Shown here piece by piece: positions 1,212 to 17,123 of a DNA stretch of 33,413 nt; within the stretch, counting starts at the first letter, position 1, and every line of letters begins with the position of its first letter. The DNA is taken from the NCBI GenBank assembly GCA_039000685.1, contig JAWBNW010000003.1, positions 1-33,413 of the forward strand. The letters run 5' to 3'. Origin of the DNA: Candidatus Aenigmatarchaeota archaeon (GTDB lineage Archaea; Aenigmatarchaeota; Aenigmatarchaeia; CG10238-14; SCSR01). The position numbers and the translations under genes are program-made. The notes under the pieces were generated by a model, which was given only the letters and a program-made list of their open reading frames with translations, had not been told where the DNA came from and did not search any database.

Positions 1212-2471
1212 CTATTCTAACAACCACTTCCACAAAGGCTTACAAACTATCTTTTTATTCCCAAGCTTAATCTCATCTTCATAATCCCATGTTATCACAA
1301 GCAAATTTTTGCACTTCAGCTCATCACTTGCTTTTATTAAGGCTTTAATTTCCCTTTTCTCAATTTCATCTTTAGCTGAAGCATAAGTCGCTTGAATTAA
1401 CTGTTTAACTTTCAAACCTTCTTTCAAAACGAAATCCACTTCATTTTTTTGTTGATCTTTCCAGTAAAAGATTTCCACAAGCTTTCCCAGTTCTTTTTTC
1501 TTCAATTCGATGAAAACAAGGTTTTCAAGCTTTCTACCGATGTTATCTTCTACAAGTCCAACATCATTAACATAAACTTTTGGTATTGTAAGTAAAGATT
1601 TTTTTAAAGAAAAGCTGAACTTTCTCAAGCAAAAAGAGAAGAAAACTTCTTCAAGATATGAAAAGTATTGGTAAAGAGTTTTAATGCTCGCTTCTATCCT
1701 TCCTTTGAGTTGGTTAAAAATTCTGTTTAAAGAAAACTCTTTAGCAAAAGATTGTAAAACTGAATACAAAAGAAATCTTGCAACTTCGACATTTTCTATT
1801 CTATACCTTTCAACCAAATCTTTATAGAGCACAACATCAATATATTCTCTTGAAAAAGTTTTGTTGTCTATTTTTTTCAAGACAACTTGCGGGAAACCTC
1901 CTGTTGTCAAATATTTTTTGAGTAAGTTTTTAATTTTTCCCTCTTCTATACTTGAATACAATTTTTTTTGTTCAATTCCTTCTGTTTTCAAAAATTCTTT
2001 AAAACCGAAAGGAAAGACAACAACATCCAAGCTTCTTCCCCTCAATTGGGTTGCTATTTCTTTTGACAAAAGTTTCGAAGAAGATCCTGTGAGGAAAACA
2101 AAATATTTTTTCTTCTCTATTAAGCTGTAAACGAAAGATTGCCACCTCTCAAGGTTTTGAATTTCATCCAAGAAAATGTATTCAGGCTCTTTTCCATAAA
2201 CTTCTACATGCTTTTGTACACATTTGACCAAATCTTCTCTCTTCAGAGATTTAATTTCATCATCTTCAAAGTTTATGAAAAGATAATCTTCATCATCTAG
2301 ATTAAACTTCTTTATCAGACTGTAGAGAAAGAATGTTTTGCCAGATCTTCTCGGTCCTATCACAGAAAAACCAAATTCTTTTGTTGGATTTACAGAAATT
2401 AACCTTTCCACTATTTCTTGCTTTTTTATGCTTTCTTTTTTGTCTACAAAATACTTTTCCATATATTCCAT
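1212..2471 (-). CDS. AAA+ ATPase, AAA_14 + wHTH + DUF4143 family
   Basis: Walker A GPRRSGKT, Walker B IFLDEIQ, LTGSSSKLLSKEIATQLRGR, GGFP, EVDFV and C-terminal PLWKWLL. The start is more likely ATG 2471 or 2462 than 2531, given the TATA-like box at 2487-2494. Confidence 0.9.
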   Translation of the reverse strand: MEYMEKYFVDKKESIKKQEIVERLISVNPTKEFGFSVIGPRRSGKTFFLYSLIKKFNLDDEDYLFINFEDDEIKSLKREDLVKCVQKHVEVYGKEPEYIFLDEIQNLERWQSFVYSLIEKKKYFVFLTGSSSKLLSKEIATQLRGRSLDVVVFPFGFKEFLKTEGIEQKKLYSSIEEGKIKNLLKKYLTTGGFPQVVLKKIDNKTFSREYIDVVLYKDLVERYRIENVEVARFLLYSVLQSFAKEFSLNRIFNQLKGRIEASIKTLYQYFSYLEEVFFSFCLRKFSFSLKKSLLTIPKVYVNDVGLVEDNIGRKLENLVFIELKKKELGKLVEIFYWKDQQKNEVDFVLKEGLKVKQLIQATYASAKDEIEKREIKALIKASDELKCKNLLVITWDYEDEIKLGNKKIVCKPLWKWLLE

Positions 2472-2519
2472 TAGGGATAAACTTTTATTTAAATTTTTAG
2501 TCATTAGGGATAAACTTTT
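2469..2519 (-). promoter_or_regulatory. 18-bp direct repeat flanking a TATA-like box (putative operator)
   Basis: CATTAGGGATAAACTTTT at 2469-2486 and 2502-2519, with ATTTAAAT at 2487-2494 between them. Confidence 0.6.
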
Positions 2520-2579
2520 TAACCTTTTCATGTAGCGCTTATGTAACCAATAAAAGAAGGATCTTAATGAATAAAATGT

Positions 2580-3848
2580 TCAAAAAGGATTCAAAAGTAG
2601 CCACTTCCACAAAGGCTCACAAACTATTTTTCTTCCCCCAAATTTTATCTCATCTTCATAGTCCCAAGTTATCATCAACAAATTTTTACACTTAAGCTCT
2701 TCACTTGCTTTTATCAAAGCCTTTATTTCCCTCTTTTCAACTTCATCTCTACCAGAAGCATAAGTAACTTGAATTAATTGCTTTATTTTCAATCCTTCCT
2801 TCAACACAAAATCAACTTCCCCACTCACAACATCGAAATAATAAATTTCACAGTTTCCAAACCTTCTTTTAAGTTCTAGAAAAACAACATTTTCCATCAA
2901 CCTCCCCCAATCTGTAGAAAACCTTGGGGAAAAGAATTTTATCAAACCATTATCGATAACATAAACTTTCTTCTGTGTTTTTATGGTTTCTTTTAATTTC
3001 CTTTCAAACTTTTCAACAGAAAAAATCAAGAAAACGTCTTCCAGCATTTTCACAAACTCTATCACAGTATTTTTTGAAATTTTAATTCCTGAAGATGTTA
3101 ATAAGTTTTGCAGTTTTGAATAAGTATAGTAAGAAGAAAAATTTGAAACCAAAACCTTTGTCAAGAATTCGAGTGTCTTAATTTTTTTCACTTTGAACCT
3201 TTCAACTATGTCCTTGTAAAAAACACCATCTTTTATCGAAATTAGTAAATCTTGATAAAGTTGTGGCTTGAGAACAGGTTCTGGAAAACCACCATTTTCA
3301 ATATATTCGTTCAGCATTTTAAGCAAAATTCCTCTTTCAGCATAAATTGAGAACTTATTTTCTTCAAATTTCTTAGCTCTAAGAAACTCCTTGAAAGAGA
3401 AAGGAAAAACAAAAACACTTACAGCCCTTCCCCTCAATTGAGTAGCAATTTCTTTGCTCAAAAGTTTTGAAGAAGATCCTGTGAGAAAAATTCTGTAGCC
3501 TTTATCATAAAGCTCCCTCACACCAATTGGCCAATCTTTCACAACTTGTATTTCATCCAAAAACAAATTTTTTGGTTTTTCTCCATAAAGTTCTTGATAT
3601 GCAACAATCATATCATTGAAATTTTTGGCAGAAACACCAATTAAACTTCCTCTTTCAAAATTTATGAAAAGACAATCTTTCTTACCGATTTCTTTAATTT
3701 TTTGATAAATCAAGTATGTTTTGCCACTTCTCCTAGGCCCAACTATTGTTATAAGATTGTGTTCCGGAATTTCTATTTCTCTTTTCACTAATTCTGGAAG
3801 TTCGGATTTTTCGAATTCTGCTATAGCCGCTTTGAATTCCTCTTTCAT
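2580..3848 (-). CDS. AAA+ ATPase, AAA_14 + wHTH + DUF4143 family (paralog 2)
   Basis: GPRRSGKT, LFLDEIQ, LTGSSSKLLSKEIATQLRGR, GGFPE, EVDFV, PLWKWLL. ATG 3848 lies about 24 nt downstream of a TATA box. Confidence 0.9.
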   Translation of the reverse strand: MKEEFKAAIAEFEKSELPELVKREIEIPEHNLITIVGPRRSGKTYLIYQKIKEIGKKDCLFINFERGSLIGVSAKNFNDMIVAYQELYGEKPKNLFLDEIQVVKDWPIGVRELYDKGYRIFLTGSSSKLLSKEIATQLRGRAVSVFVFPFSFKEFLRAKKFEENKFSIYAERGILLKMLNEYIENGGFPEPVLKPQLYQDLLISIKDGVFYKDIVERFKVKKIKTLEFLTKVLVSNFSSYYTYSKLQNLLTSSGIKISKNTVIEFVKMLEDVFLIFSVEKFERKLKETIKTQKKVYVIDNGLIKFFSPRFSTDWGRLMENVVFLELKRRFGNCEIYYFDVVSGEVDFVLKEGLKIKQLIQVTYASGRDEVEKREIKALIKASEELKCKNLLMITWDYEDEIKFGGRKIVCEPLWKWLLLNPF

Positions 3849-3862
3849 AATGTATAGTATAG

Positions 3863-3888
3863 TGAACAAATATTTAAATTTTTGTTCA
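3863..3888 (-). promoter_or_regulatory. Inverted repeat flanking TATA box (putative operator)
   Basis: TGAACAAA-TATTTAAATT-TTTGTTCA. Confidence 0.55.
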
Positions 3889-4532: not shown

Positions 4533-4689
4533 AATTTTAAGGCGGGAAGTTAAAGATTTAAACCTTAGACTCAATTCACAGTTAATTTCTTTGCTGTTTT
4601 CCTAAGCCCAGAGATTAATTGACTATAAAAGTATTTAAAGATTAGTTAATTTCAAAACTTAATAGAAATAAAAAAACTAAATCAATTTC

Positions 4690-5169
4690 ATGAAACCAGA
4701 AAAAGATGCTTACGGCCAAGAAATATGGGCTTACTTTAAAGGAAAGGAAAGTTTCGAGATCGTAGAAAGAGATGACGGATATTTTGATGTATCCAGCGGC
4801 GCTAAATCGTATTTCTCTGAGTATAAAAATTGGCCAGCACATGAAAAGAAAGTCATGAAGTTTGTAAAAGGTAAAGTTTTGGATGTCGGGTGTGGTGCTG
4901 GCAGGCATACTATTTATCTCCAGAAGAAAGGTTTTGATGTTGTTGGAATTGACAACTCACCACTTGCTATAAAAATTTGTAGATTGAGAGGTTTGAAAAA
5001 AGCCAAAATTATGTCGATAACTGAAGTTGGTAAATTCAAACCAAATTTTTTTGACACGAGAATTATGATGGGGAATAATTTTGGGTTATTTGGTAGCTTT
5101 AAAAGGGCAAAGTTTCTCTTGAAAATCAAAGGAAACGGTATGAAAGTGTTAATTCTTCTAGTAAGATAG
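4690..5169 (+). pseudogene. Class I SAM-dependent methyltransferase, C-terminally truncated
   Basis: Motif [20 protein letters not shown] and [10 protein letters not shown]. The family-like sequence seems to stop near KRAKFLLK (~5125), so the Rossmann fold appears incomplete. Confidence 0.7.
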
Positions 5170-5369
5170 AATTTAATTTCACTATCTTTAAACAGGCTTT
5201 CGAATACTTGGAAATAAAATCAAACAGAGAACTTTCTTCTTTAATAGCTGCTTGATTCATTCCTGCTTCGGCCATTCAACTCACTTTTTCTTTCTTTTTC
5301 AGAATACCAACTCACTAACAGACTCACATACTTCGGCATTCTTTCCAAGACATCTCTATCCATAATGAA

Positions 5370-5539
5370 TCACTCTGTTGGTTTCCTAGTTTCTTCAGGT
5401 AAGTAAGACAATTTGGCAAGAACTTTCACTAACAATGCCCTAACTGTATCTGACCTTGCAGGATCTCTTCTGTTTTAGCTTTCTCTAGAGCCTGAAATAC
5501 TTCTTCTGGCAAGCATATTGATATCGTTTTAACTTTCAT
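5370..5539 (-). pseudogene. Ribbon-helix-helix (CopG-like) regulator, frameshifted
   Basis: MKVKTISICLPEEVFQALEKAK, then in a shifted frame RRDPARSDTVRALLVKVLAKLSYLPEETRKPTE*. This matches the RHH beta-strand/helix A/helix B pattern. Confidence 0.6.
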
Positions 5540-5606
5540 GAGTTCTACTGGTAAAATGTTAGTTTTAAATAATACTGTCAGGTATAACAACAATTGTTGA
5601 TAGTTT

Positions 5607-6020
5607 ATGCAACATCAAGAGATAGTAGAAGCAATACAAGTAGCTAGTAGGAATTGGAAATTATTGGAAAGACTCAACCAGAGTCGATATAATGTCACTA
5701 GAATAGCCAAAGAATTGAAGAAAGACAAATCAGTTGTTTCTAGAGATAAGGAACTGCGAAGACAGAGGCTTAGTTCAATCTATTTTTGGATCTGGAAAGG
5801 ATGGTGAAAGGTTAAATTTACAGAGCTAACAACAAAGGGTAAAAAAGTGATTGAAGCTATAAACCAAGTTAGCGATATAAGGGAAATCAAAAATTTGAAC
5901 TTACTGAGTTATATACTAACAGTAGAAGTTAAATCATCGAAAGATACAAAGCTATCTGAGAGTGAATTTAGAGAAAATATCCAGGAGAAATTAAAGAATA
6001 GACCAAAGAGAATTACTTAA
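5607..6020 (+). pseudogene. Winged-helix (MarR/ArsR-like) regulator with two frameshifts
   Basis: NVTRIAKELKKDKSVVSR, EDRGLVQSIFGSGKDGER and FTELTTKGKKVIEAINQ lie in successive frames, ending at TAA 6020. Confidence 0.65.
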
Positions 6021-6215
6021 TTTGATAGATTATTTTTCAGTTAGTTTAATAGTTTGTTTGGACGCATAACCATCAGATTATTACATAAATTGTTTATTTT
6101 ACCATTAATGTGCACAAAATAACAAAACATTTGGCAGATTATCTAAATAACAAGTTTATATGTTATATTTAAATCTTTTATCATATTAATTTCATTATAA
6201 TTTCATTAGGAGTAA

Positions 6216-7649
6216 GTGATCCTAATGAAATATGCAAAAAAAGAGATTTCGAATTGGTATGATGAAGTACTAGAGCGTGCTGATATTTTAGATAATAGAT
6301 ATCCTCTCAAAGGATGTTATGTGTGGAGGCCTTATGGTTGGCAGATTATGAAGAATATAATGAAGATATGGGACAATGCTCTAGTAAATTCTGGACACCA
6401 AGAAGCACGATTCCCCTTACTTATTCCAGAATCACTTTTTGGCAAAGAATCAAAACATCTACGCGGCTTTGAAGAGCAAGTTTATTGGGTTACTCGTGCA
6501 GGAAGAAGGGAACTAGATGAAAAATTAATCATTAGACCTACTTCGGAAACAGCAATATATCCCATGTATTCGTTGTGGATAAGATCTCATAAGGATTTAC
6601 CTCTGAGAATTTATCAAAACAGCAATGTAATGCGTTATGAATCCAAATCAACACGACCATTAATTAGAGACAGAGAAATATTCCCCTGGTTCGAAGCTCA
6701 TACTGCACATGCCACACTAGAAGATGCAGAAGAACAAATAAAGACAGAAATTAAAGTTTTAAAAGAAATTTTTAATAAATTGTCTCTGCCGTATTTAATT
6801 TTAAATAAGCCAAAATGGGAGTTATTTCCTGGAGCCATTTCGGCCATAGAGTTTTATTCTATTCTTCCAAACGGAGTTTTATTAGAAAATGGCAGTGTTA
6901 ATAATTTAGGTCAGGCATTTTCAAAGGTTTACGATATAAAATTCAGGAAACAAAATGATTCTTATGAATATGTGTGGCAAACTTGCACAGGTAATGGTGA
7001 AAGATTACTTGCAGCTGTTATACTAATCCATGGTGATGATTATGGTCTTGTTTTACCACCATCTATTGCACCAATCCATTCTGTAATTGTCCCTATACCC
7101 AAAAAAGGAAAACTCTTAAAAATAAAAGAGTTCTCTGAAGAGATTAACGAAAAATTAAATAGAATGCAAATAACTTCTTATTTAGATGTACGCAAAGAAA
7201 TAACACCTGGAGAAAAATTTTATGATTGGGATTTAAAAGGGGTTCCAACTAGAGTTGAAATTGGTGAGAAAGAAATTGAAAATGATGGACTAACAGTTTA
7301 TAGGAGGGATATACGTAAAAGAGTATTTATTCATTCTAATGAGATTAACAAATTTTTCTCCTCAGTTTTTGATGACATATCTAATTCTATGATGGCTAAG
7401 GCTATCAATAACACTGAATCACTTATAAAAATACTTTATAATTATGATGAATTAAGAAGAATGCTATCTGAAGGATATGTCGCAAAAATAAGTTTTTGCG
7501 GATCCAAAGAATGTAGTGATAAAATAAAGGATGATTTTGCAGCTGATGTTGTTGGTTTACTTTATGAAAACATTAGCATGGAAAAAGAAAATTGTATTGT
7601 GTGTGGCAAATCTTCTATAGGTCAAGCTATAGTTGGTAAAACATTCTGA
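6216..7649 (+). CDS. Divergent archaeal/eukaryal-type prolyl-tRNA synthetase paralog
   Basis: RPTSET, motif 2 RYESKSTRPLIRDRE, motif 3 QTCTGNGER, HGDD, anticodon domain LKGVPTRVEIG and Zn-ligand Cys pairs. Pocket motifs are non-canonical. AGGAG precedes GTG 6216; ATG 6225 is an alternative start. Confidence 0.9.
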   Translation: MILMKYAKKEISNWYDEVLERADILDNRYPLKGCYVWRPYGWQIMKNIMKIWDNALVNSGHQEARFPLLIPESLFGKESKHLRGFEEQVYWVTRAGRRELDEKLIIRPTSETAIYPMYSLWIRSHKDLPLRIYQNSNVMRYESKSTRPLIRDREIFPWFEAHTAHATLEDAEEQIKTEIKVLKEIFNKLSLPYLILNKPKWELFPGAISAIEFYSILPNGVLLENGSVNNLGQAFSKVYDIKFRKQNDSYEYVWQTCTGNGERLLAAVILIHGDDYGLVLPPSIAPIHSVIVPIPKKGKLLKIKEFSEEINEKLNRMQITSYLDVRKEITPGEKFYDWDLKGVPTRVEIGEKEIENDGLTVYRRDIRKRVFIHSNEINKFFSSVFDDISNSMMAKAINNTESLIKILYNYDELRRMLSEGYVAKISFCGSKECSDKIKDDFAADVVGLLYENISMEKENCIVCGKSSIGQAIVGKTF

Positions 7650-8665
7650 CTAATTTTTTGATATTTTTTCCGTTCAATTTTATGCGACCATATACATCTA
7701 CGCTTTGAATTTTTCATTATGTTAAAAAATTCTCTCATATTGTTCTTTATTTGTTTTAAACTACCTTTTCTAAGTAACACAAGTATGTTAATAGGGTTGT
7801 TGTCTGGAATCGGAAAAAAGCATTTTTTAAGTTTTCCGTCATGTGTTATTCTTAAAGCAAAAATACCATCTTGGCATGGGTAATTTGAACATTTTTTACA
7901 AAATTCAGCATAATAAATTCCATTTTTCGGATCTAAAAATAAAACTTTTGTACCATCTTGAAGAACGTATTTATCCATAGGAATGCCAATACCACCCAAA
8001 TGTTTTTCTAGCGTTATATTTTTTGCATATTTTTTAAATAACTTCTTAATTTTACTAAGTGGTATATATTCCTTCTGCCAAAATTCGAAGTTTGATAAAT
8101 TGTTTAACTCCATTATCTTAGCTGTAGCTCCAAGTTTTCCTATAAACCTAATCAGCCTTGGAAATTCTGATTTATTTGTGTTCATTGCTACGACATTTAT
8201 AATCATAGGCAATTTATATTTTTTACATGCATAAAGTCCTCTAATAACTTTTTCTAATCCATCAACACCTAACATATTTATAAATACTTTTTTATTTAGG
8301 GTATTTAGACTTACTGTAATAGAATCTAACCCAGCTTCTTTAAGGTCTTTTGCATATTTTTCAAGTAATATACCATTTGTTCCAAGATTAAGATTTTTAA
8401 TCCCATTAATTTTTCGGACCGATTTTACTATTTCTATTATATCGTCTCTTAAAAGAGGTTCTCCACCCGAAATTTTTATATGCTTAAAACCAACCCCCAC
8501 TCCAATTTTAACCAATTTTTTAATTTCATTAGGGGTCATGAAATTAGAGATATTATTAAAAAAATCTTCGCCACCAAGTGTGCAATAACTACATCTTGCA
8601 TTACAATATGGAGTTACTAAGACTCGTAGATGTGGAATTAAATTATGAGTTTTTCTAAGATACAT
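7622..8665 (-). CDS. MoaA-like radical SAM enzyme with twitch-type auxiliary cluster domain, function unknown
   Basis: CNARCSYC (CxxxCxxC), SGGEPLLR, TNG and C-terminal FCKKCSNYPC...LRITHDGKLKKC. GGAGG RBS upstream. No terminal GG. Confidence 0.85.
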   Translation of the reverse strand: MYLRKTHNLIPHLRVLVTPYCNARCSYCTLGGEDFFNNISNFMTPNEIKKLVKIGVGVGFKHIKISGGEPLLRDDIIEIVKSVRKINGIKNLNLGTNGILLEKYAKDLKEAGLDSITVSLNTLNKKVFINMLGVDGLEKVIRGLYACKKYKLPMIINVVAMNTNKSEFPRLIRFIGKLGATAKIMELNNLSNFEFWQKEYIPLSKIKKLFKKYAKNITLEKHLGGIGIPMDKYVLQDGTKVLFLDPKNGIYYAEFCKKCSNYPCQDGIFALRITHDGKLKKCFFPIPDNNPINILVLLRKGSLKQIKNNMREFFNIMKNSKRRCIWSHKIERKKYQKISQNVLPTIA

Positions 8666-8726
8666 TCACTAGAACCTCCTTTTTTACTTTATAAATTATA
8701 AAAGATTTAAATCTGTTAAATTATAA

Positions 8727-9746
8727 ATGCTAATTATGATTAAAAAAAGATTAGCATCATATTTTGCAATAATAATTATTTTTGCAATAATTTTATTATT
8801 TATTACTTATTTTTTAGGTCCTAAATTACTATATTTGCCATCAGGAAAAATAAGAGTTGGTTATATAAAACATGCTGCTGAACTTCCTCTTTATGTTGCA
8901 TTGGAAAATGGTTATTTTGAAAAACAGAATTTAAAAGTTGAACTAATTCCTCTTGGATATAAAGAAGAAATGGACGCTTTAATAAGAGGGGATATTGATA
9001 TTATTCCTGCAACAAGTTTAACATTACCATTTGGTGTAGAAAGTGAAAGTCCAGAGTTGCTTAAACTCCACACATTTGGTGGGGTAATAGATGATGATAA
9101 AGAAATAGTAGAAGCTATTGTAGTTTTAAACGAATCTTCAATTTATTCTTTAAATGATTTAAAGAATAAAAAAATAGGTGTGACAAGTGGTGGAGTTGAC
9201 TTATTTGTTGTGAAGACTGTTCTTACTAAAGTTGGTTTAAAACCAGAAGAAAATAACATACAAATACTTCAAATGGATAGGAAACTGTTATTAATGTCAT
9301 TAGCTTCTAGACAGGTGGATGCAATTTATGTGACCCAACCAGATTTAGCTTCTATAGTTCATACAGTAAACAGCAGATATGTTGTCATCAATCCCAGGGC
9401 AAAATATATTTTAAACCCATTTTGGTCAGGTGCGGGAGTAGTAACAAGTAAATATTTAATTAAAAACTCTGAAACTTTTAAAAAATATCTAGTAGCAATA
9501 GATGAAGCAATAGAGTATTCTAGACTAAATCCCATTGAATCTAAAAAACTCTTAGTAAAATATACACCTGTAAACGAGAGCATAGCATTAGATGTTGGTA
9601 TTTATTTCAAAGTAAAATCAAATGAATCCATTAATCTTACTGCAGTCCAACAAATTGCAGATACTTATGTGGAGGTTGGGATATTGAAAAAAAATATCAA
9701 TGTTACAAACCTTTATTTATCTCCAGAATATGTAAAAGCACTTTGA
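8727..9746 (+). CDS. NitT/TauT (SsuA/THI5-like) ABC transporter substrate-binding protein
   Basis: N-terminal TM anchor, IRVGY, LPLYVALENGYFEKQNLKVEL, DLKNKKIGV. Confidence 0.85.
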   Translation: MLIMIKKRLASYFAIIIIFAIILLFITYFLGPKLLYLPSGKIRVGYIKHAAELPLYVALENGYFEKQNLKVELIPLGYKEEMDALIRGDIDIIPATSLTLPFGVESESPELLKLHTFGGVIDDDKEIVEAIVVLNESSIYSLNDLKNKKIGVTSGGVDLFVVKTVLTKVGLKPEENNIQILQMDRKLLLMSLASRQVDAIYVTQPDLASIVHTVNSRYVVINPRAKYILNPFWSGAGVVTSKYLIKNSETFKKYLVAIDEAIEYSRLNPIESKKLLVKYTPVNESIALDVGIYFKVKSNESINLTAVQQIADTYVEVGILKKNINVTNLYLSPEYVKAL

Positions 9747-9752
9747 GTAATT

Positions 9753-10511
9753 ATGATATATATAGATATTGTTCATTTATATAAAAGCTATGAGACTAAT
9801 GATGAGAAGATAATTATATATAAAAATTTTAACTTTAAAATTAGAGAAAAAATTATTGCATTTTTTGGACCTAATGGATGTGGTAAAACAACATTACTTA
9901 ATATTATCTGTGGTATAGTAAAACCCGATTCGGGCAAAATAAAGTTCAATATTGATGGTTTTTCTCAAGATAAAATAGGGTACGTGTTTCAAAGTACTGA
10001 GAATTTTTTATTTCCATGGATGTCAAACTTTGACAATATTACATTTCCTCTTAAGCTTAAAAATATTGATAAAAATGAAAGGGCAAACAAACTTCAAACA
10101 TTAATTAATCAACTAGATATAGTAAATATACCTTTAAATGCGTATCCCTATCAACTTAGTGGTGGGCAACAACAAATAATTGCTATTTTAAGAGCATTGA
10201 TAAGCGACCCAAATATTTTATTATTAGATGAGCCATTTTCCAATTTAGACTACTTAACTAAACTTAAAGTTAAATTTAACTTACTTAAAATACTAAAGAA
10301 TAGAAATATAGTTACTATTTTTGTTTCTCATACAATAGAAGAAGCAATATTCTTGGCTGATAGAATCGTCATTTTAAGTCAGAAACCGACGAAAATTCTA
10401 GAAACTCTGAAAGTTCCTTTTAAAAAGAGAAATATAGATACGATCCATTCAGAAAAATCCTCAAAGTTAAAAGAAAGAGTACTAAGACATTATAAAAATT
10501 ATTGGGTGTGA
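9753..10511 (+). CDS. NitT/TauT ABC transporter ATP-binding protein
   Basis: GPNGCGKTT, LSGGQQQ, LLLDEPFSNLD, VSHTIEEAIFLADRI. Confidence 0.92.
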   Translation: MIYIDIVHLYKSYETNDEKIIIYKNFNFKIREKIIAFFGPNGCGKTTLLNIICGIVKPDSGKIKFNIDGFSQDKIGYVFQSTENFLFPWMSNFDNITFPLKLKNIDKNERANKLQTLINQLDIVNIPLNAYPYQLSGGQQQIIAILRALISDPNILLLDEPFSNLDYLTKLKVKFNLLKILKNRNIVTIFVSHTIEEAIFLADRIVILSQKPTKILETLKVPFKKRNIDTIHSEKSSKLKERVLRHYKNYWV

Positions 10512-10517
10512 TATAAA

Positions 10518-11261
10518 ATGAAAAAGTTTACTTTTGTTGGACCACTTATAGTATTACTAATTTGGTGGATTATAACTTATATTCCTTTGATTAAATCAAT
10601 TTTACTTCCACCTCCACATACTGTAATTTTATCATTGTTTACACAACTATTCATTTCAAAGGAGTTATTGTATCCTTTATTTGAGACTCTATCTCTTTGG
10701 CTAACAGCATTCATTGTTGGTACTGTTGGTGGTATTTCTAGCGGGATGGTTATGGGATACTCTGATAAAATTTATTCATTTTTTGAAGTAATCATAGATT
10801 TTTTTAGATCTCTCCCCTCACTCTTGTTGATTCCAATAGCCATAATATTTTTCGGTATAGGGAATACATCAGCATTTCTTGTTACAACATGGTCTGGATT
10901 TTTTTATATTTTTATCAATACAATTTATGGAGTGAAATATGCTAGGAAAAGCTACATCTTTATTACAAAAATATTAAACATTGAGAAATTAAAAACATTC
11001 ACAGAAGTTATTTTGCCAGCTTCTGCTCCATACATAATTGCTGGTTTGCGTATAAGCTTAAGCATAACTTTAATAGTAGCAGTTGGATCAGAAATGATTC
11101 TCGGAAGAGGTGGTCTTGGCGGGAAAGTTTATGATGCATTTTTGATATATAACACAACTGAAATCTATGTGATAATCCTTATTGTTGGAACATTAGGCTA
11201 CATATCTAATAAACTTTTGGTACTTCTAGAAAATAGAGTTATTCACTGGAAAGGAGAATAA
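10518..11261 (+). CDS. NitT/TauT ABC transporter permease
   Basis: LLPPPHTV, FFRSLPSLLLIP, VILPASAPYIIAGLRI and about 6 TM segments (TauC/SsuC pattern). Confidence 0.9.
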   Translation: MKKFTFVGPLIVLLIWWIITYIPLIKSILLPPPHTVILSLFTQLFISKELLYPLFETLSLWLTAFIVGTVGGISSGMVMGYSDKIYSFFEVIIDFFRSLPSLLLIPIAIIFFGIGNTSAFLVTTWSGFFYIFINTIYGVKYARKSYIFITKILNIEKLKTFTEVILPASAPYIIAGLRISLSITLIVAVGSEMILGRGGLGGKVYDAFLIYNTTEIYVIILIVGTLGYISNKLLVLLENRVIHWKGE

Positions 11262-11309
11262 TAAATATTAAATTAATTTTTATAGTAATGTTAAAAATCG
11301 TACAGAAAA

Positions 11310-12767
11310 TTAGTATTGTTTTGCCATATATACTAAAAAATTTGCCTTTTTACCACATACTACACATTCTCCTTTTGGAGATTTTTCTTTTTCAAATAAC
11401 GTCCCTCTAATTGTTCCACCATTTGTTTTTACCTTTATATGATTTGCACATTCTTCATTACCACACCAATTAGTTTTTACTAACCCACCTTTTTCTTCAA
11501 GAATTTTCTTTAACTCTTTAAAATCTTTTGCTTCTGATAAATTCTCTTTAAGAAAGTTTTCAGCTTTTTTAACTAGAGAATTTTGCAAATTTTCAAGTAA
11601 TTTTTTAACAGAAGATATGAGTTGTTTTTCCTTACAAGATTTTTTTGTTCTGGTATCTCTTCTCACTAGAACCACTTGCTTACTTTTCAAATCAGCTGGT
11701 CCTATTTCAATTCTTAGTGGTACCCCTTTTAATTCCCAGTAATTATACTTGTATCCAGGAGTATATTCAGACCTTTCGTCTACTATGACTCTAATTTCAT
11801 TTTTTTCCAAAAGTTTTGAAATTTCTCTTGCCCTTTTCAAAACTCTGTTTTTTTCACTCTTTTTGTAGTATATTGGAATTATTACAACTTGATATGGTGC
11901 GATTTTTGGAGGAAGGATTAGTCCTTTATCATCTCCGTGGATAGCTATTAAAGCACCAAAAATTCTCCAAATAGCGGGTCCGTAGCAAGTTTGCCAAACA
12001 TACTTTTCTTTCTTATCTTTATCTATAAATTTTATGTTAAAAACTTTAGAAAAATTTTGTCCAAGTAAATGGGTCGAAGGCAATTGAATAACTTTTCCAT
12101 CTGGCATTATAGTATCTGCTGCATAAGTATGAATAGCACCTTTAAATTTATCATGTTCAGGTCTTTTAAAAAACATAAAAGGAATTGCAAACTGTTTATG
12201 CATTACTTCTTCAGTAATTTTCATATCCTCTTTTACTTGTTTTTCTGCCTCCTTCTTTGTAGCGAATACATTATGAGCTTCAATCCAATAAAATTCCCTA
12301 CCTCTAATAAATGGTCTGGTATAACTTTCATATCTCCAAACCTGACAACTTTGATATGTTTTAAGTGGTAAATCTCTCCAACTCCTGATCCATAAAGAAA
12401 ACATACTATACATCGCAGTTTCTGAAGTTGGTCTTAAAGCTAATCTTTCTTCTAGTTTTTTGTGTTCAGCACCACATTCTGTAATCCAAAAGACATCTAC
12501 CGAGAATTCAGCGTGTTCTCTCTCTTTTTTTAGAAAAGATTCTGGAATTACAGAAGGGAATAAAACTGGCTCGTGGCCTCTTTTCTCAAGTTCTTTTTCA
12601 AATAGCTCATACATTATCTTCATTACCCTAACAGACCAAGGCATATGAACAAGAAACCCCTTGACATTGTATCTTATATCTGCCAATTCAGCTTTTTGAA
12701 CTACCTGCGTATACCATTCTGAAAAATTTTCTAATTTTTTAATTGTTAATCCTTCTTGTTCAGCCAT
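11310..12767 (-). CDS. proS: Proline--tRNA ligase, canonical archaeal type
   Basis: RPTSET, WRYESYTRPFIRGREFYWIEAH, DKFKGA, QLPSTHLLGQNF, QTCYG, WELKGVPLRIEIG, Zn cysteines and C-terminal Tyr. Confidence 0.95.
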   Translation of the reverse strand: MAEQEGLTIKKLENFSEWYTQVVQKAELADIRYNVKGFLVHMPWSVRVMKIMYELFEKELEKRGHEPVLFPSVIPESFLKKEREHAEFSVDVFWITECGAEHKKLEERLALRPTSETAMYSMFSLWIRSWRDLPLKTYQSCQVWRYESYTRPFIRGREFYWIEAHNVFATKKEAEKQVKEDMKITEEVMHKQFAIPFMFFKRPEHDKFKGAIHTYAADTIMPDGKVIQLPSTHLLGQNFSKVFNIKFIDKDKKEKYVWQTCYGPAIWRIFGALIAIHGDDKGLILPPKIAPYQVVIIPIYYKKSEKNRVLKRAREISKLLEKNEIRVIVDERSEYTPGYKYNYWELKGVPLRIEIGPADLKSKQVVLVRRDTRTKKSCKEKQLISSVKKLLENLQNSLVKKAENFLKENLSEAKDFKELKKILEEKGGLVKTNWCGNEECANHIKVKTNGGTIRGTLFEKEKSPKGECVVCGKKANFLVYMAKQY

Positions 12768-12914
12768 TCAATAACACCATAAAATCTTTTATAAAATCTA
12801 TATAAATAAAGCTAGCCAAAATAAGTAATTTGGATTAGATGCATGGAACTCGTTCACAATTTCATTCATATTAATATTATGTTTATTTAAATAAATTAAT
12901 TTTTTACTATTTTT

Positions 12915-13250
12915 TCATTTTATAATTCTTAAATTCAATAACTTGATGATTTTTAAAAGTACATCTTTATTCAATACTCTTTCGTTCCATTTGAGAAAAA
13001 CAAGTTTCACTTCTTTATTCAAAGTTTCTCCTTTAAAATTCCACCATTTCTTGTGTAGCTCTTTAGCATAATCCAAATAGGCAACTCTTTGAATGCTCGT
13101 AATGCCATACTTATCTAGAATTCTCTTAACTCTCTTTATCAACCTATCTTGAGACTTAAGAGAATTCTTATCCATGTACTTCTTCAATTGTTCGTAAGTT
13201 ACGTTAATTTTCTGCATACCAAACAACTCCCTGAGCGAATTACATTTCAA
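12915..13250 (-). CDS. Putative SIRV2-fold (Adnaviria-type) capsid-protein-like helical protein
   Basis: VKRILDKYGITSIQRVAYLDYAKEL...GETLNKEV...NKDVL resembles the rudivirus coat protein core as recalled from memory. Start uncertain (TTG 13250 or ATG 13217). Confidence 0.5.
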   Translation of the reverse strand: MKCNSLRELFGMQKINVTYEQLKKYMDKNSLKSQDRLIKRVKRILDKYGITSIQRVAYLDYAKELHKKWWNFKGETLNKEVKLVFLKWNERVLNKDVLLKIIKLLNLRIIK

Positions 13251-13274
13251 CTTTAGTTAAACTATACTTCATGC

Positions 13275-13907
13275 CTAATCTTCCTTAAACAGATCCTCCA
13301 TGTTCTTCTCTTTAGCTAGTTCAACAAACTCTTTCTTTACTTTTGGATCTTTCTCTGCCAGTCTTTTCAACAGTTCGAATACAAAATCCTCATACTTCCT
13401 TCTATTATCTTCAAGTTTCATCATAGTTTCTATATCCAAAGGAGAGCCACACTTCTTACAAAACTGAGAAGTTGGGTCATTAATGTTTTGACATCTAAGA
13501 CATTTCTTTAGCTTCAAAACAGTTTCTTTCTTATCTTCTTCTTTAGCCAAACCATGTATCTGTAGTAAAGCATTATCAACATTCCTACCTGACAGATGAA
13601 CATAAACAGAAGCCATCTTAGAAGATTGTACCCAACCAAACAGTTCTTTCATCTGTGCTTCTGTAAGTTTGCTAGCCAATACGGTAGCTCCAGCATGTCC
13701 AAAACTATGTGGGTCAATTCTTTTCTTTATCCCAACTTTAATAGCGAGGTCCTTAAGCATTTTTAGAGTAGAATGATAACCAAGTTTGTTAAATCTATTT
13801 CTGGTTCCTATGGATATCCATAAAGAAGAATCAGAGTTATCTTTCAAAGGATGATTGCTCAGCCAATTCATTAGTATGGGAGGAGAAGCAATTACTCTTA
13901 CTCTTCT
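13275..13907 (-). pseudogene. Tyrosine recombinase/integrase C-terminal fragment with zinc ribbon
   Basis: RRVRVIAS...WLSNHP, PHSFGH (HxxR Arg replaced by Gly), GWVQSSKMASVYVHL with the catalytic Tyr, and CLRC/CKKC. The N-terminal half is absent. Confidence 0.85.
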
Positions 13908-14376: not shown

Positions 14377-15174
14377 TTACGAAAGAACAAAACTATTTTT
14401 TATACCTAATTTCACTTCTTTTGCTCTTTCCCACAAGCTTCTCATGTAGCTGTCTAACATGTTAACAAAAGAAGGATCTTTCGACCAAATTGAATGGAAG
14501 TTCAACTTCTCACCATTTTCCAATCTAACCATAGCCTCTTTTCCATCAACAACAACTATGCGAGGATGCAAGCCAAGTTCAACAATTCTCAGTTTAATCC
14601 CACCCTTCAAGTACCACTTTACTTTTTCCATGTTTTCAAAACCATTTGTTACCATGAGACGAACTTTTATTCCCCTTTCTTTACAATCAAGCAAAGCTTC
14701 CCTGTAGCTTGAAGAATAAGGCAAATTCTTCGTGAAATCGTAAACATATCTCCTAGCTTTTTTGAACATCTGCACAAGCTTGTCAAGAATTTCCATATAT
14801 TTTTCAGTCTTCTGAACCCAAACTCCTTCGGCAAATTCTTCATCCACTTCTATCGGTCTTAACAACCTGCTGATCAAAAAAGCTTTCTGCTTCAATTCTT
14901 TGAACTCTTCCTCCTTAGCTTCAAGCAAACTCTTGATGACAAATTGTGGCGTTACTGCTTTAAAAAGCTTAGGCCTTTCTTCAGAAATTTCCACAAGCTG
15001 CTTCTCCATTAAGCTTTCAAGCGTCACATAAATTTTTGATTGGGGCACGCAAGCTTGCTTACTTATTTCGCTAGCTTTAGTCGGACCAAGCAGGCTTAGC
15101 GTCACGTAAGCTTTCGATTCATATTCAGTCAAACCAAACTTTTGCAAAGTCTTGATTATTTCTTCCTTCTCCAC
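14377..15174 (-). CDS. TrmB family transcriptional regulator
   Basis: GLTEYESKAYVTL, ASEISKQACVPQSKIYVTLESL and a C-terminal PLD-like domain with HPRIVVVDG. Confidence 0.9.
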   Translation of the reverse strand: MEKEEIIKTLQKFGLTEYESKAYVTLSLLGPTKASEISKQACVPQSKIYVTLESLMEKQLVEISEERPKLFKAVTPQFVIKSLLEAKEEEFKELKQKAFLISRLLRPIEVDEEFAEGVWVQKTEKYMEILDKLVQMFKKARRYVYDFTKNLPYSSSYREALLDCKERGIKVRLMVTNGFENMEKVKWYLKGGIKLRIVELGLHPRIVVVDGKEAMVRLENGEKLNFHSIWSKDPSFVNMLDSYMRSLWERAKEVKLGIKNSFVLS

Positions 15175-15242
15175 AATTTTCTCTTTTCTATTTGGTATTA
15201 AATTTTCTTTCTTATCAAGTGAGTGGTTGCAAGCTCGATTTT

Positions 15243-15259
15243 CACCACTCTGAGTGGTG
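15243..15259. promoter_or_regulatory. Perfect palindrome, putative TrmB operator
   Basis: CACCACTC-T-GAGTGGTG between divergent genes, with related half-sites at 15221, 14325 and 14360. Confidence 0.6.
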
Positions 15260-15296
15260 GCTAAATTTCATTAAGCCCTGGTGGTATCTTAAAAGC

Positions 15297-15443
15297 ATGG
15301 AAAAAGCACTGAAAAAAGTGGAAGAAGGGCTTAGAGAGTGTGGTTTGGAAGAGAAAGAAGTGAAAGCCTTGATGAACTTCTTGAAGAATTACCTTGAATT
15401 AAAGAAAAATGAAAGATGTAAGCCTGAATTTGAAAAGAAATGA
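15297..15443 (+). CDS. Small hypothetical protein (48 aa)
   Basis: MEKALKKVEEGLRECGLEEKEVKALMNFL..., charged and helical, resembling the LxxxGLxExE opening of TrmB wHTH domains. Confidence 0.5.
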   Translation: MEKALKKVEEGLRECGLEEKEVKALMNFLKNYLELKKNERCKPEFEKK

Positions 15444-15496
15444 ATTCTTAAAATTTTGGTAAAAAATTTAAACTAGCTTGTGAAATTCTTAAAGAG

Positions 15497-16312
15497 ATGG
15501 AGAAAGCTGATATATACAATACTTTGAAGCAACTTGGCTTGGGTGAATATGAAGCAAGGGCTTACACAGATCTTGTTCTGCTAGGGCCTTCTCCTGCAAA
15601 CGAACTCAGCAGAGTTGCCAATATACCAAAGTCAAAAATTTATGATGTTCTTGAGAGCTTGATGTCCAAACAAATGGTTGAAGTTTTTGAAGAAAAACCC
15701 AAGCTTTTCAGAGCAATCGATCCAAGCATCGCGATCAAAAGCTTGATAGATGAAAAAGATCAAGAATTCAAAACAATAAAAGAAAAAGCAAATGCCTTAA
15801 TTTCTCAGCTTAAAATTTTTGGAAAAAAAGAAGAAATAGCAGAAGGAATTTGGGAACAAAATGGAGAAAAGGCAACAGAAGCCTTGAACAAGCTTGCTGA
15901 GATGTTTGAAAGAGCAAACAAATACACGATCAGCATCACGCGCGATTTTTCCCTTTCTTCAATTTTAAGAGAAGCTATAAAGTCTTGTTTGAGAAGAAAA
16001 GTCAAAGTCATGATGATATGCATGGGGATAACAAAAGAAAATTTTTACGGAGCAAAGTGGTGCTTAGAACAAAAAATTCCCATCAAAATTTTTGAAGCAA
16101 AAATTCATCCTCGCATCCTTGTGGTTGATGGGAAAGAAGTTGCGATAAGGCTTGACAGCAACCCAGAAGCAAGAAGGTTCAGGTTCAGGACGATTTGGTC
16201 AAATGATCCTTCTTTTGTTGCTGTCATGGACAACTACATGAAAAATCTCTGGAAGATGGCAAAGCCAGTTGATCTAAAAAATTTTAACTCTCCCAGTAGG
16301 TTACAAATTTAA
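15497..16312 (+). CDS. TrmB family transcriptional regulator (paralog)
   Basis: GLGEYEARAY, IPKSKIYDVLESL, HPRILVVDG. Collinear with 14377-15174. Confidence 0.9.
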   Translation: MEKADIYNTLKQLGLGEYEARAYTDLVLLGPSPANELSRVANIPKSKIYDVLESLMSKQMVEVFEEKPKLFRAIDPSIAIKSLIDEKDQEFKTIKEKANALISQLKIFGKKEEIAEGIWEQNGEKATEALNKLAEMFERANKYTISITRDFSLSSILREAIKSCLRRKVKVMMICMGITKENFYGAKWCLEQKIPIKIFEAKIHPRILVVDGKEVAIRLDSNPEARRFRFRTIWSNDPSFVAVMDNYMKNLWKMAKPVDLKNFNSPSRLQI

Positions 16313-16976: not shown

Positions 16977-16994
16977 GATGTTTAGATTTGTCAA

Positions 16995-17080
16995 TGCCCC
17001 CACTGGGATTCGAACCCAGACCCAGAGCTTTTCACTAAGAACCGCAAGCTCCCGTCCTATCCAGGTTAGACGATGGGGGC
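16995..17080 (-). tRNA. tRNA-Arg(GCG) with 12-nt intron at 37/38
   Basis: Acceptor GCCCCCA/TGGGGGC, D-loop GGA with A20, anticodon arm GGAGC-TTGCGG[TTCTTAGTGAAA]A-GCTCT, T arm CTGGG-TTCGAAT-CCCAG. Intron at 17030-17041. CCA is not encoded. Confidence 0.92.
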
Positions 17081-17123
17081 AATCTATAAAAATATTTCTC
17101 ACCAATTAATTTAATCTGATAAC

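Follow-up and report, generated by a model that had tools for sequence, protein, structure and literature searches.

The stretch of DNA analysed here, hereafter the window, is the whole of contig C23 (33,413 bases) from a 57-contig genome bin of a Candidatus Aenigmatarchaeota archaeon (a DPANN-type archaeon), and carries two prolyl-tRNA synthetase (ProRS) genes, ProRS_X on the forward strand and ProRS_B on the reverse strand (Table 1). Both genes lie on a low-GC island of 9.3 kb that most likely came by horizontal transfer, and ProRS_X belongs to a subfamily of archaeal/eukaryal-type ProRSs, here called EN-type, whose members are found elsewhere as the sole ProRS of a genome. We consider it likely that ProRS_X is a working enzyme of this type, acquired horizontally on the island together with a second foreign ProRS and residing beside a native copy that is still present. 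A first-pass annotation, made by comparing the two genes of the window, had read the changes in the amino-acid pocket of ProRS_X as pointing to an altered substrate or to inhibitor resistance rather than to decay.

The frame of ProRS_X has neither a frameshift nor an internal stop codon (translation of 6216-7649). Its true start is probably the ATG at 6225, since the database copy has 474 residues and begins three codons in; AGGAG at 6208-6212 precedes this ATG. The protein scored 486.4 bits against NCBIfam TIGR00408 (proS_fam_I; curated cut-off 437; profile positions 5-474 of 475), and it contains each of the three Pfam domains of archaeal/eukaryal-type ProRS (PF00587, the class II core, at residues 90-269, PF03129 and PF09180). 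An AlphaFold2 model, for which 28 EN-type sequences were the input, had a mean predicted local distance difference test score (pLDDT) of 85.3 and a predicted template modelling score (pTM) of 0.85, the motif 2 loop (residues 138-155) alone being of low confidence, and Foldseek aligned it with the structure 1NJ1 at template modelling scores of 0.91/0.94 over 469 columns, a comparison at the level of the fold. In terms of TIGR00408 score, class II core, HGTP domain, zinc domain and fold, ProRS_X is thus a member of the ProRS family, and the terminal Tyr is the only family feature tested that it lacks. ProRS_X and ProRS_B (11310-12767) are 39% identical over 464 columns (BLASTP, E 2e-116), and every substitution listed by the first-pass annotation is present in their alignment: VIQLPSTHLLGQ becomes LLENGSVNNLGQ, WQTCYG becomes WQTCTG, EHDKFKGA becomes KWELFPGA and ..KQY becomes ..KTF. 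The features that it had described as kept are likewise in place, namely RPTSET, R140, E142, R151 and R153 of motif 2, R263 of motif 3, the anticodon domain and the zinc cysteines.

The pocket residues were mapped through the contacts that passages of PMC7312540 give for PfProRS and through motif alignment, and their states were compared in a main alignment of 164 rows, composed of the best database matches, the ProRSs of relatives and EN-type loci from named genomes. E224 and N229 were found together in 39 of the 120 best database matches of ProRS_X. The 163 rows other than ProRS_X fell into two classes, 48 EN-type versus 115 QH-type, with no mixed row. EN-type rows have E224, S227 and N229 in 48/48, mostly along with K198, E202 and E353 (E202 in 45/48), whereas QH-type rows have Q224 in 115/115, T227 in 102/115 and H229 in 115/115, mostly along with R198, D202 and D353. 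ProRS_X shows all six EN states (K198, E202, E224, S227, N229 and E353). Regarding the other substitutions, L203 occurs in 29 and T258 in 18 of the 163 other rows, and the string CTGNG in 16 of them, eight of which are loci with the only ProRS match of their genome. The 12-mer LLENGSVNNLGQ recurs unchanged in four DPANN genomes, in each case in the sole ProRS.

In 17 genomes whose ProRS was read from the DNA, four of them in the same order and two in the same family as the organism of the window, the EN-type enzyme is the only E-type ProRS match (11 of the ENT and 6 of the EMN subgroup, the two subgroups that the check covered; Table 1). The P-type (bacterial) ProRS model did not exceed its cut-off in any of 18 genomes, i.e. 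these 17 and G000, and its best matches there were the E-type genes themselves, at no more than 99 bits. Since the EN-type enzyme is the only ProRS of such a cell, it must charge tRNAPro with proline. The EN-type pocket would accordingly seem to be an alternative way to bind proline, with no sign of a new substrate, and by the same comparison ProRS_X is predicted to be active and specific for proline. A scan of loci in other archaea covered at least 80 ProRS loci, with five EN-type ones among those listed, which is a sample and no census. The EN signature occurs in none of the three solved structures compared by alignment (1NJ1, 1NJ8 and 3IAL; 25 structure matches in all), and our literature searches, none of which was aimed at the E224/N229 pair, brought up no account of the EN/QH split or of DPANN genomes with more than one ProRS.

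These comparisons bear directly on the proposal that the pocket of ProRS_X had been altered for a substrate of its own. The changes Q>E, H>N, T>S, D>E, K>L and Y>T are all common in sole housekeeping ProRSs, and H>N and Y>T, for which the first-pass annotation had suggested a search in a homolog clade, recur there (H229N in 48/163, T258 in 18/163 other rows), so that the idea of a paralog-specific substrate was not borne out and the reading that rested on these changes loses its signal. In the form considered here, ProRS_X would activate an analogue of proline or some other small amino acid that the radical S-adenosylmethionine (SAM) enzyme and the ATP-binding cassette (ABC) transporter of the island might make or import. 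The private changes near the active site (Y477F, and M139 beside R140) and the adjoining MoaA-like radical SAM gene and importer would agree with this, but every pocket strand matches those of sole housekeeping ProRSs, the island has no dedicated tRNA, the radical SAM gene lies on the opposite strand and is not co-transcribed with ProRS_X, and these genes are paired at none of the other loci compared. We regard an altered specificity as very improbable.

If ProRS_X works as the preferred reading has it, it would presumably be a class IIa dimer, in which proline and ATP react to prolyl-adenylate before the prolyl group passes to tRNAPro. The amino acid and the alpha-phosphate would be bound by T109 and E111 of the TxE loop and by R140. 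Two strands, one carrying E224, S227 and N229 and the other C257, T258 and G259, would form the walls of the pocket, as they do in the sole-copy relatives; tRNAPro would be recognised by the anticodon-binding domain, and the zinc domain, together with the terminal residue, would rest against the catalytic core.

Table 1. Features of the ProRS island and of its surroundings (window positions), and genomes in which an EN-type enzyme is the sole ProRS.
Feature	Position or genomes	Strand	Remarks
ProRS_X, full-length archaeal/eukaryal-type ProRS, EN subfamily	6216..7649	+	open frame, 477 residues from GTG 6216
RPTSET, TxE loop (residues 107-112), binding of the amino group of the amino acid	6534..6551	+	R107, P108, T109 and E111 invariant in 121/121 other rows
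Motif 2 and loop (residues 140-165), RYESKSTRPLIRDREIFPWFEAHTAH	6633..6710	+	R140, E142, T146, R151, E160 and H162 invariant
ELFPGA (residues 202-207)	6819..6836	+	E202, EN-type marker; L203, usual state of the ENY group
LLENGSVNNLGQ (residues 222-233), EN-type form of the Q-x-G-T-x-H-N-L-G-Q strand	6879..6914	+	E224, S227, N229
QTCTGNGER (residues 255-263), strand before motif 3 and motif 3 arginine R263	6978..7004	+	R263 invariant in 121 other rows
Anticodon-binding domain (residues 290-380)	7083..7355	+	PF03129, E 3.6e-13; invariant residues of the EN alignment kept
C-terminal ProRS zinc-binding domain, ending in Phe477	7443..7646	+	PF09180, E 8.6e-12; C428, C433, C460 and C463 invariant
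ProRS_B, QH-type ProRS (QTCYG, ..KQY)	11310..12767	-	TIGR00408, 523.2 bits
ENT subgroup (T258), sole ProRS	G026, G029, G034, G038, G235, G174, G172, G041, G042, G043, G045		11 genomes
EMN subgroup (LEMGS.NNLGQ), sole ProRS	G013, G082, G228, G234, G199, G049		6 genomes
Low-GC island with both extra ProRS genes, absent from same-genus genomes	4567..13906		9,340 bases
Short class I methyltransferase open reading frame (ORF), 159 residues	4690..5169	+	Methyltransf_25, residues 63-143
Short broken ORFs, about 850 bases	5170..6020		split helix-turn-helix-like frame 5607-5807 and 5847-6020; 54-residue minus-strand ORF 5429-5593
MoaA-like radical SAM protein, convergent with ProRS_X	7622..8665	-	PF04055; 3' ends overlap by 28 nucleotides
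ABC importer operon: SsuA/NMT1-type binding protein, ATPase, permease	8727..11261	+	family matches
198-residue ORF at the right edge of the island	13275..13871	-	weakly resembles Xer-type tyrosine recombinases in their C-terminal, catalytic part

ProRS_X departs from the consensus at only one of the 54 columns conserved to 93% or more in the 164 rows (median 1, maximum 4), and this departure, E339D in the anticodon-binding domain, is conservative and common to six other rows, five of which are sole ENT ProRSs. Among 205 moderately conserved columns it has 9 private residues (a state found in at most one other row), while the count is 3 to 18 in the 15 rows, ProRS_X included, that lack a neighbour above 60% identity; the private changes include Y477F and M139, the residue adjoining R140 of motif 2. 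The catalytic, anticodon-binding and zinc modules are intact, and by these counts ProRS_X shows no decay, as the first-pass annotation had held. There is only a small chance that ProRS_X is nevertheless a gene on its way out, i.e. a recent, superfluous copy on which selection has relaxed although its sequence still appears whole. Its long terminal branch, the loss of the conserved terminal Tyr, the decayed neighbours on the island and the rule of a single gene in the phylum (at most one ProRS match in 293 of the 300 other sampled genomes) would fit such a fate, but the absence of any frameshift or stop, the single conservative departure shared with sole copies and a private-residue count inside the range of sole ProRSs speak against it.

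Searching the genome to which the window belongs, 677 kb in size, gave three ProRS genes. Both genes compared in the first-pass annotation are indeed in the window, but the third lies on contig C1, and the ProRS_B that served as comparator is itself foreign. The C1 ProRS had the highest score (642 bits; QMGTSHNLGQ, QTSWG, terminal ..SY) and is 96% identical to the ProRS of the same-genus genome G002; judged by this identity, it is the vertically inherited copy. ProRS_B shares 73% identity with the only ProRS of G018, a genome of another genus in the same family, and groups with it in a clade of starred support; going by these affinities, it is also foreign to this genus. A single ProRS match was obtained in 39 of 40 relatives at the levels of genus, family and order, and no match in the remaining one. 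None of 300 further sampled genomes of the phylum has three matches, six have two and 293 have at most one; five of the six two-match genomes gave weak best E-values that would fit fragments of one gene, and one may hold two ProRS genes. Within the family f1 (L001-L037, L127, L137) the sole ProRS is of three types (QTSWG, QTCYG and the EN-type with LEMGS.NNLGQ), indicating that ProRS has been replaced repeatedly in this lineage. The three-copy state may be a stage in such repeated replacement across the phylum, with this genome as an intermediate.

Regarding the ancestry of ProRS_X, its highest-identity matches are the ENY group (47-50%). In a tree calculated with LG+G4 it stands inside an EN clade of 26 rows (Shimodaira-Hasegawa-like approximate likelihood ratio test, 97), whereas under a site-heterogeneous model its branch is long (0.89) and of unsettled position, and the EN rows are not grouped in a single clade; we propose no donor.

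The boundaries of the island are sharp. Two same-genus genomes (G002 on its contig C8 and G004 on its contig C39) join window position 4566 to 13907 with about 32-34 unrelated nucleotides between them, and in the junction alignment about 34 nucleotides stand in relatives where the island is. The flanks are 86-96% identical to same-genus genomes at the nucleotide level, and with a GC content of 0.305 the island is poorer in GC than the genome (0.357) and ranks lowest among 313 windows of its size. Both junctions are spanned, with no mismatch and at an even depth of 7 to 8, by Logan contigs of run X1; this supports the assembly but is not independent of it, as X1, the only public run with the island, may be the source of the window.

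It is hardly credible, and to us the least probable of all readings weighed here, that assembly or binning created this picture by joining the island or C23 to the C1 ProRS of a different organism. The bin is 83.5% complete with 1.02% contamination, and its 57 contigs and the possible identity of the only island-bearing run with the source of the window leave some room for such an error. However, separately assembled contigs cross both junctions without mismatches at the depth given above, the flanks match the same-genus genomes, SRP54, FtsY, Pus10, RpoF and prefoldin are on C23 alone in this bin, and a single contig of G002 carries both the syntenic region and the vertical ProRS, with about 35 kb between them.

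The other genes of the island are listed in Table 1. The methyltransferase ORF at 4690..5169 is probably truncated, to judge from its length, and the stretch 5170..6020, whose broken frames gave no family match, appears to have decayed. Just upstream of ProRS_X, 60 bases (6087-6146) are 80-84% identical to unrelated places in the same-genus genomes G006 and G007; this genome has no second copy of the stretch. The radical SAM protein (7622-8665) scored 183-194 bits with MoaA models, all below their cut-offs, and is an orphan whose best non-self homolog is 48% identical; only MoaA-like relatives of it were found. An ORF of 111 residues lies between ProRS_B and the 198-residue ORF, and the latter matched NF040815 weakly (E 2.3e-6, profile positions 185-260 of 263). 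The two ends of the island share no att-like repeat, direct or inverted, of at least 10 nucleotides, tblastn of the island proteins gave no conserved arrangement of ProRS, radical SAM and ABC genes in the fetched loci, and one metatranscriptome of the same study contained next to nothing on the island and is uninformative about expression.

With ARAGORN and Rfam, no tRNA gene was found on the island and one was found in the window, tRNA-Ala(UGC) at 16994-17081, outside the island. At 88 nucleotides this tRNA is above the standard length, for which an intron or an extended variable region may account. In genome G000, ARAGORN called a 96-nucleotide tRNA of uncertain type with a four-base anticodon (gggc) at C56:1638-1733, probably an intron-bearing tRNA-Pro(GGG), and the same mode gave 16 tRNAs, tRNA-Pro(CGG) and tRNA-Pro(UGG) among them.

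Several neighbourhoods of other ProRS genes were also observed. A radical SAM gene (L001 2974-3918, contig C1) adjoins the vertical ProRS, in divergent orientation and overlapping its 5' end, and a radical SAM fragment adjoins the sole ProRS of a Woesearchaeota genome (L038); a radical SAM gene beside ProRS is possibly a recurrent neighbourhood. At eight Methanobrevibacter loci (L053, L073, L078, L082, L088, L091, L102 and L104), about 1.5-2.5 kb separate ProRS from a pair of genes for an ABC ATPase and a permease, which show 26-36% identity to their island counterparts. Elsewhere in the window, two tandem AAA_14/DUF4143 ATPase paralogs, 47% identical, occupy 1212-3869, with more copies or fragments on C47, C48 and C3, and a divergent pair of TrmB-family regulators (14377-16312), 47% mutually identical, is conserved in same-genus genomes.

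Several points weigh against the view that ProRS_X is a working, proline-specific enzyme acquired beside a native one. The proline specificity of EN-type enzymes rests on the logic of the sole copy, and the private residues of ProRS_X include M139, next to the motif 2 arginine, and Phe477 at the terminus. Among the 163 other rows the terminal residue is Tyr in 152 and Phe in none, which makes this change, alone among the listed substitutions, private to ProRS_X in the 164 rows. Phe in place of the terminal Tyr retains the ring and the terminal carboxylate. A terminal Phe is also found in two QH-type loci among the 80 archaeal ProRS loci listed, and H, Q or A is the last residue in several ENY rows. 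According to passages of PMC12152171, a C-terminal Tyr is present in most E-type ProRSs and stabilises the active site. Furthermore, ProRS_X is an orphan, its best non-self match among 5.8 billion clustered proteins being about 49% identical in a search that scored the 8,000 best word-sharing candidates, and it is a singleton at 50% clustering; its terminal branch is long (0.64 to 0.89 across trees), and it may have evolved faster after the transfer. That C1 and C23 come from one cell rests on binning (single-copy markers not duplicated; contamination 1.02%).

The main rival of our preferred reading, unlikely in our judgement, is that ProRS_X, and perhaps ProRS_B, is a spare isozyme under selection, which charges tRNAPro with proline while tolerating what the native QH-type enzyme cannot, for instance a natural inhibitor of the proline site or the heat or redox stress of a hot spring. 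In passages of PMC7312540, five residues of PfProRS are described as forming hydrogen bonds with halofuginone, T359 and E361 among them, and by motif alignment their equivalents in ProRS_X are T109, E111, R140, S227 and N229. EN-type enzymes thus have Ser and Asn in place of T478 and H480, two of these five, and may differ from QH-type enzymes in their sensitivity to ligands of the proline site. This replacement would favour a tolerant isozyme, as would the intactness of both ProRS genes, each on foreign DNA, in a very small genome where their island neighbours look truncated or broken, the rarity of three copies (1 of 301 sampled genomes of the phylum), and the coexisting ProRS isozymes of Bacillus thuringiensis, which differ in halofuginone and stress tolerance according to passages of PMC11229370. 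On the other hand, no inhibitor gene cluster was identified, the adjoining radical SAM gene and ABC importer are without a known link to ProRS inhibitors, no close relative exists for a test of selection, and a neutral recent passenger fits the data equally well. A wider form of this idea, which we put forward as a speculation with the odds clearly against it, is that the EN-type is a second design of the proline site, which removes the Thr and His contacts of febrifugine-class compounds, that the patchwork of ProRS types in closely related DPANN archaea would record repeated selective sweeps due to natural ProRS inhibitors, and that the island would be a mobile cassette for ProRS replacement or resistance, caught before the loss of the native gene.

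Taking ProRS_X as a horizontally acquired, working EN-type ProRS, we draw three lessons from this locus. Differences in the pocket between paralogs of one window are not evidence of neo-functionalisation until they have been compared with sole copies elsewhere; the two-state EN/QH split of the active site matters for the design and interpretation of ProRS inhibitors that act at the proline site; and one 0.68-Mb genome with three ProRS types, two of which lie on an island with sharp ends, gives a natural case in which the replacement of an essential synthetase can be followed.

Among known systems, second copies of aminoacyl-tRNA synthetases that confer antibiotic resistance, IleRS2 (mupirocin) and SerRS2 (albomycin) in passages of PMC9437257, are like ProRS_X in being divergent, horizontally acquired and located beside a native one. 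The resemblance is limited to that of an acquired extra copy, with no inhibitor, producer cluster or phenotype known here. The Streptomyces ProRSx, for which passages of the same source describe an extra ProRS with its own tRNAProA bearing an alanine anticodon, is likewise an extra copy beside a housekeeping ProRS; unlike it, ProRS_X has no tRNA gene on its island, keeps the invariant residues of the anticodon domain and shares its active-site changes with sole copies. ProRS1 and ProRS2 of B. thuringiensis are, according to passages of PMC11229370, coexisting isozymes of different structure that both charge the host tRNAPro, the second tolerating halofuginone and stress better, although that pair is a P-type and an E-type enzyme in a bacterium and was tested experimentally, whereas here three E-type archaeal copies, two of them on one island, are known from sequence. 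As for solved structures, the best matches are the ProRSs of Methanothermobacter thermautotrophicus (1NJ1, E 7e-125) and Methanocaldococcus jannaschii (1NJ8, E 4.5e-123), which are like ProRS_X in having three domains, no insertion or deletion in the motif 2 loop, W-(D/E)-x-F-P-G and Q-T-C-x-G, but are QH-type (QIGTVHNLGQ, QTCYG, terminal Tyr) where ProRS_X has E224, S227, N229, T258 and a terminal Phe. The sole EN-type ProRSs of DPANN genomes (e.g. G026, G034, G038, G045 and G174) are only 41-46% identical to ProRS_X overall, end in Tyr, occur as a single copy and not as one of three, and, in the ENT members, have RPTGEPA in place of RPTSETA, and yet they share with it all six markers, LLENGSVNNLGQ, CTGNG and D339.

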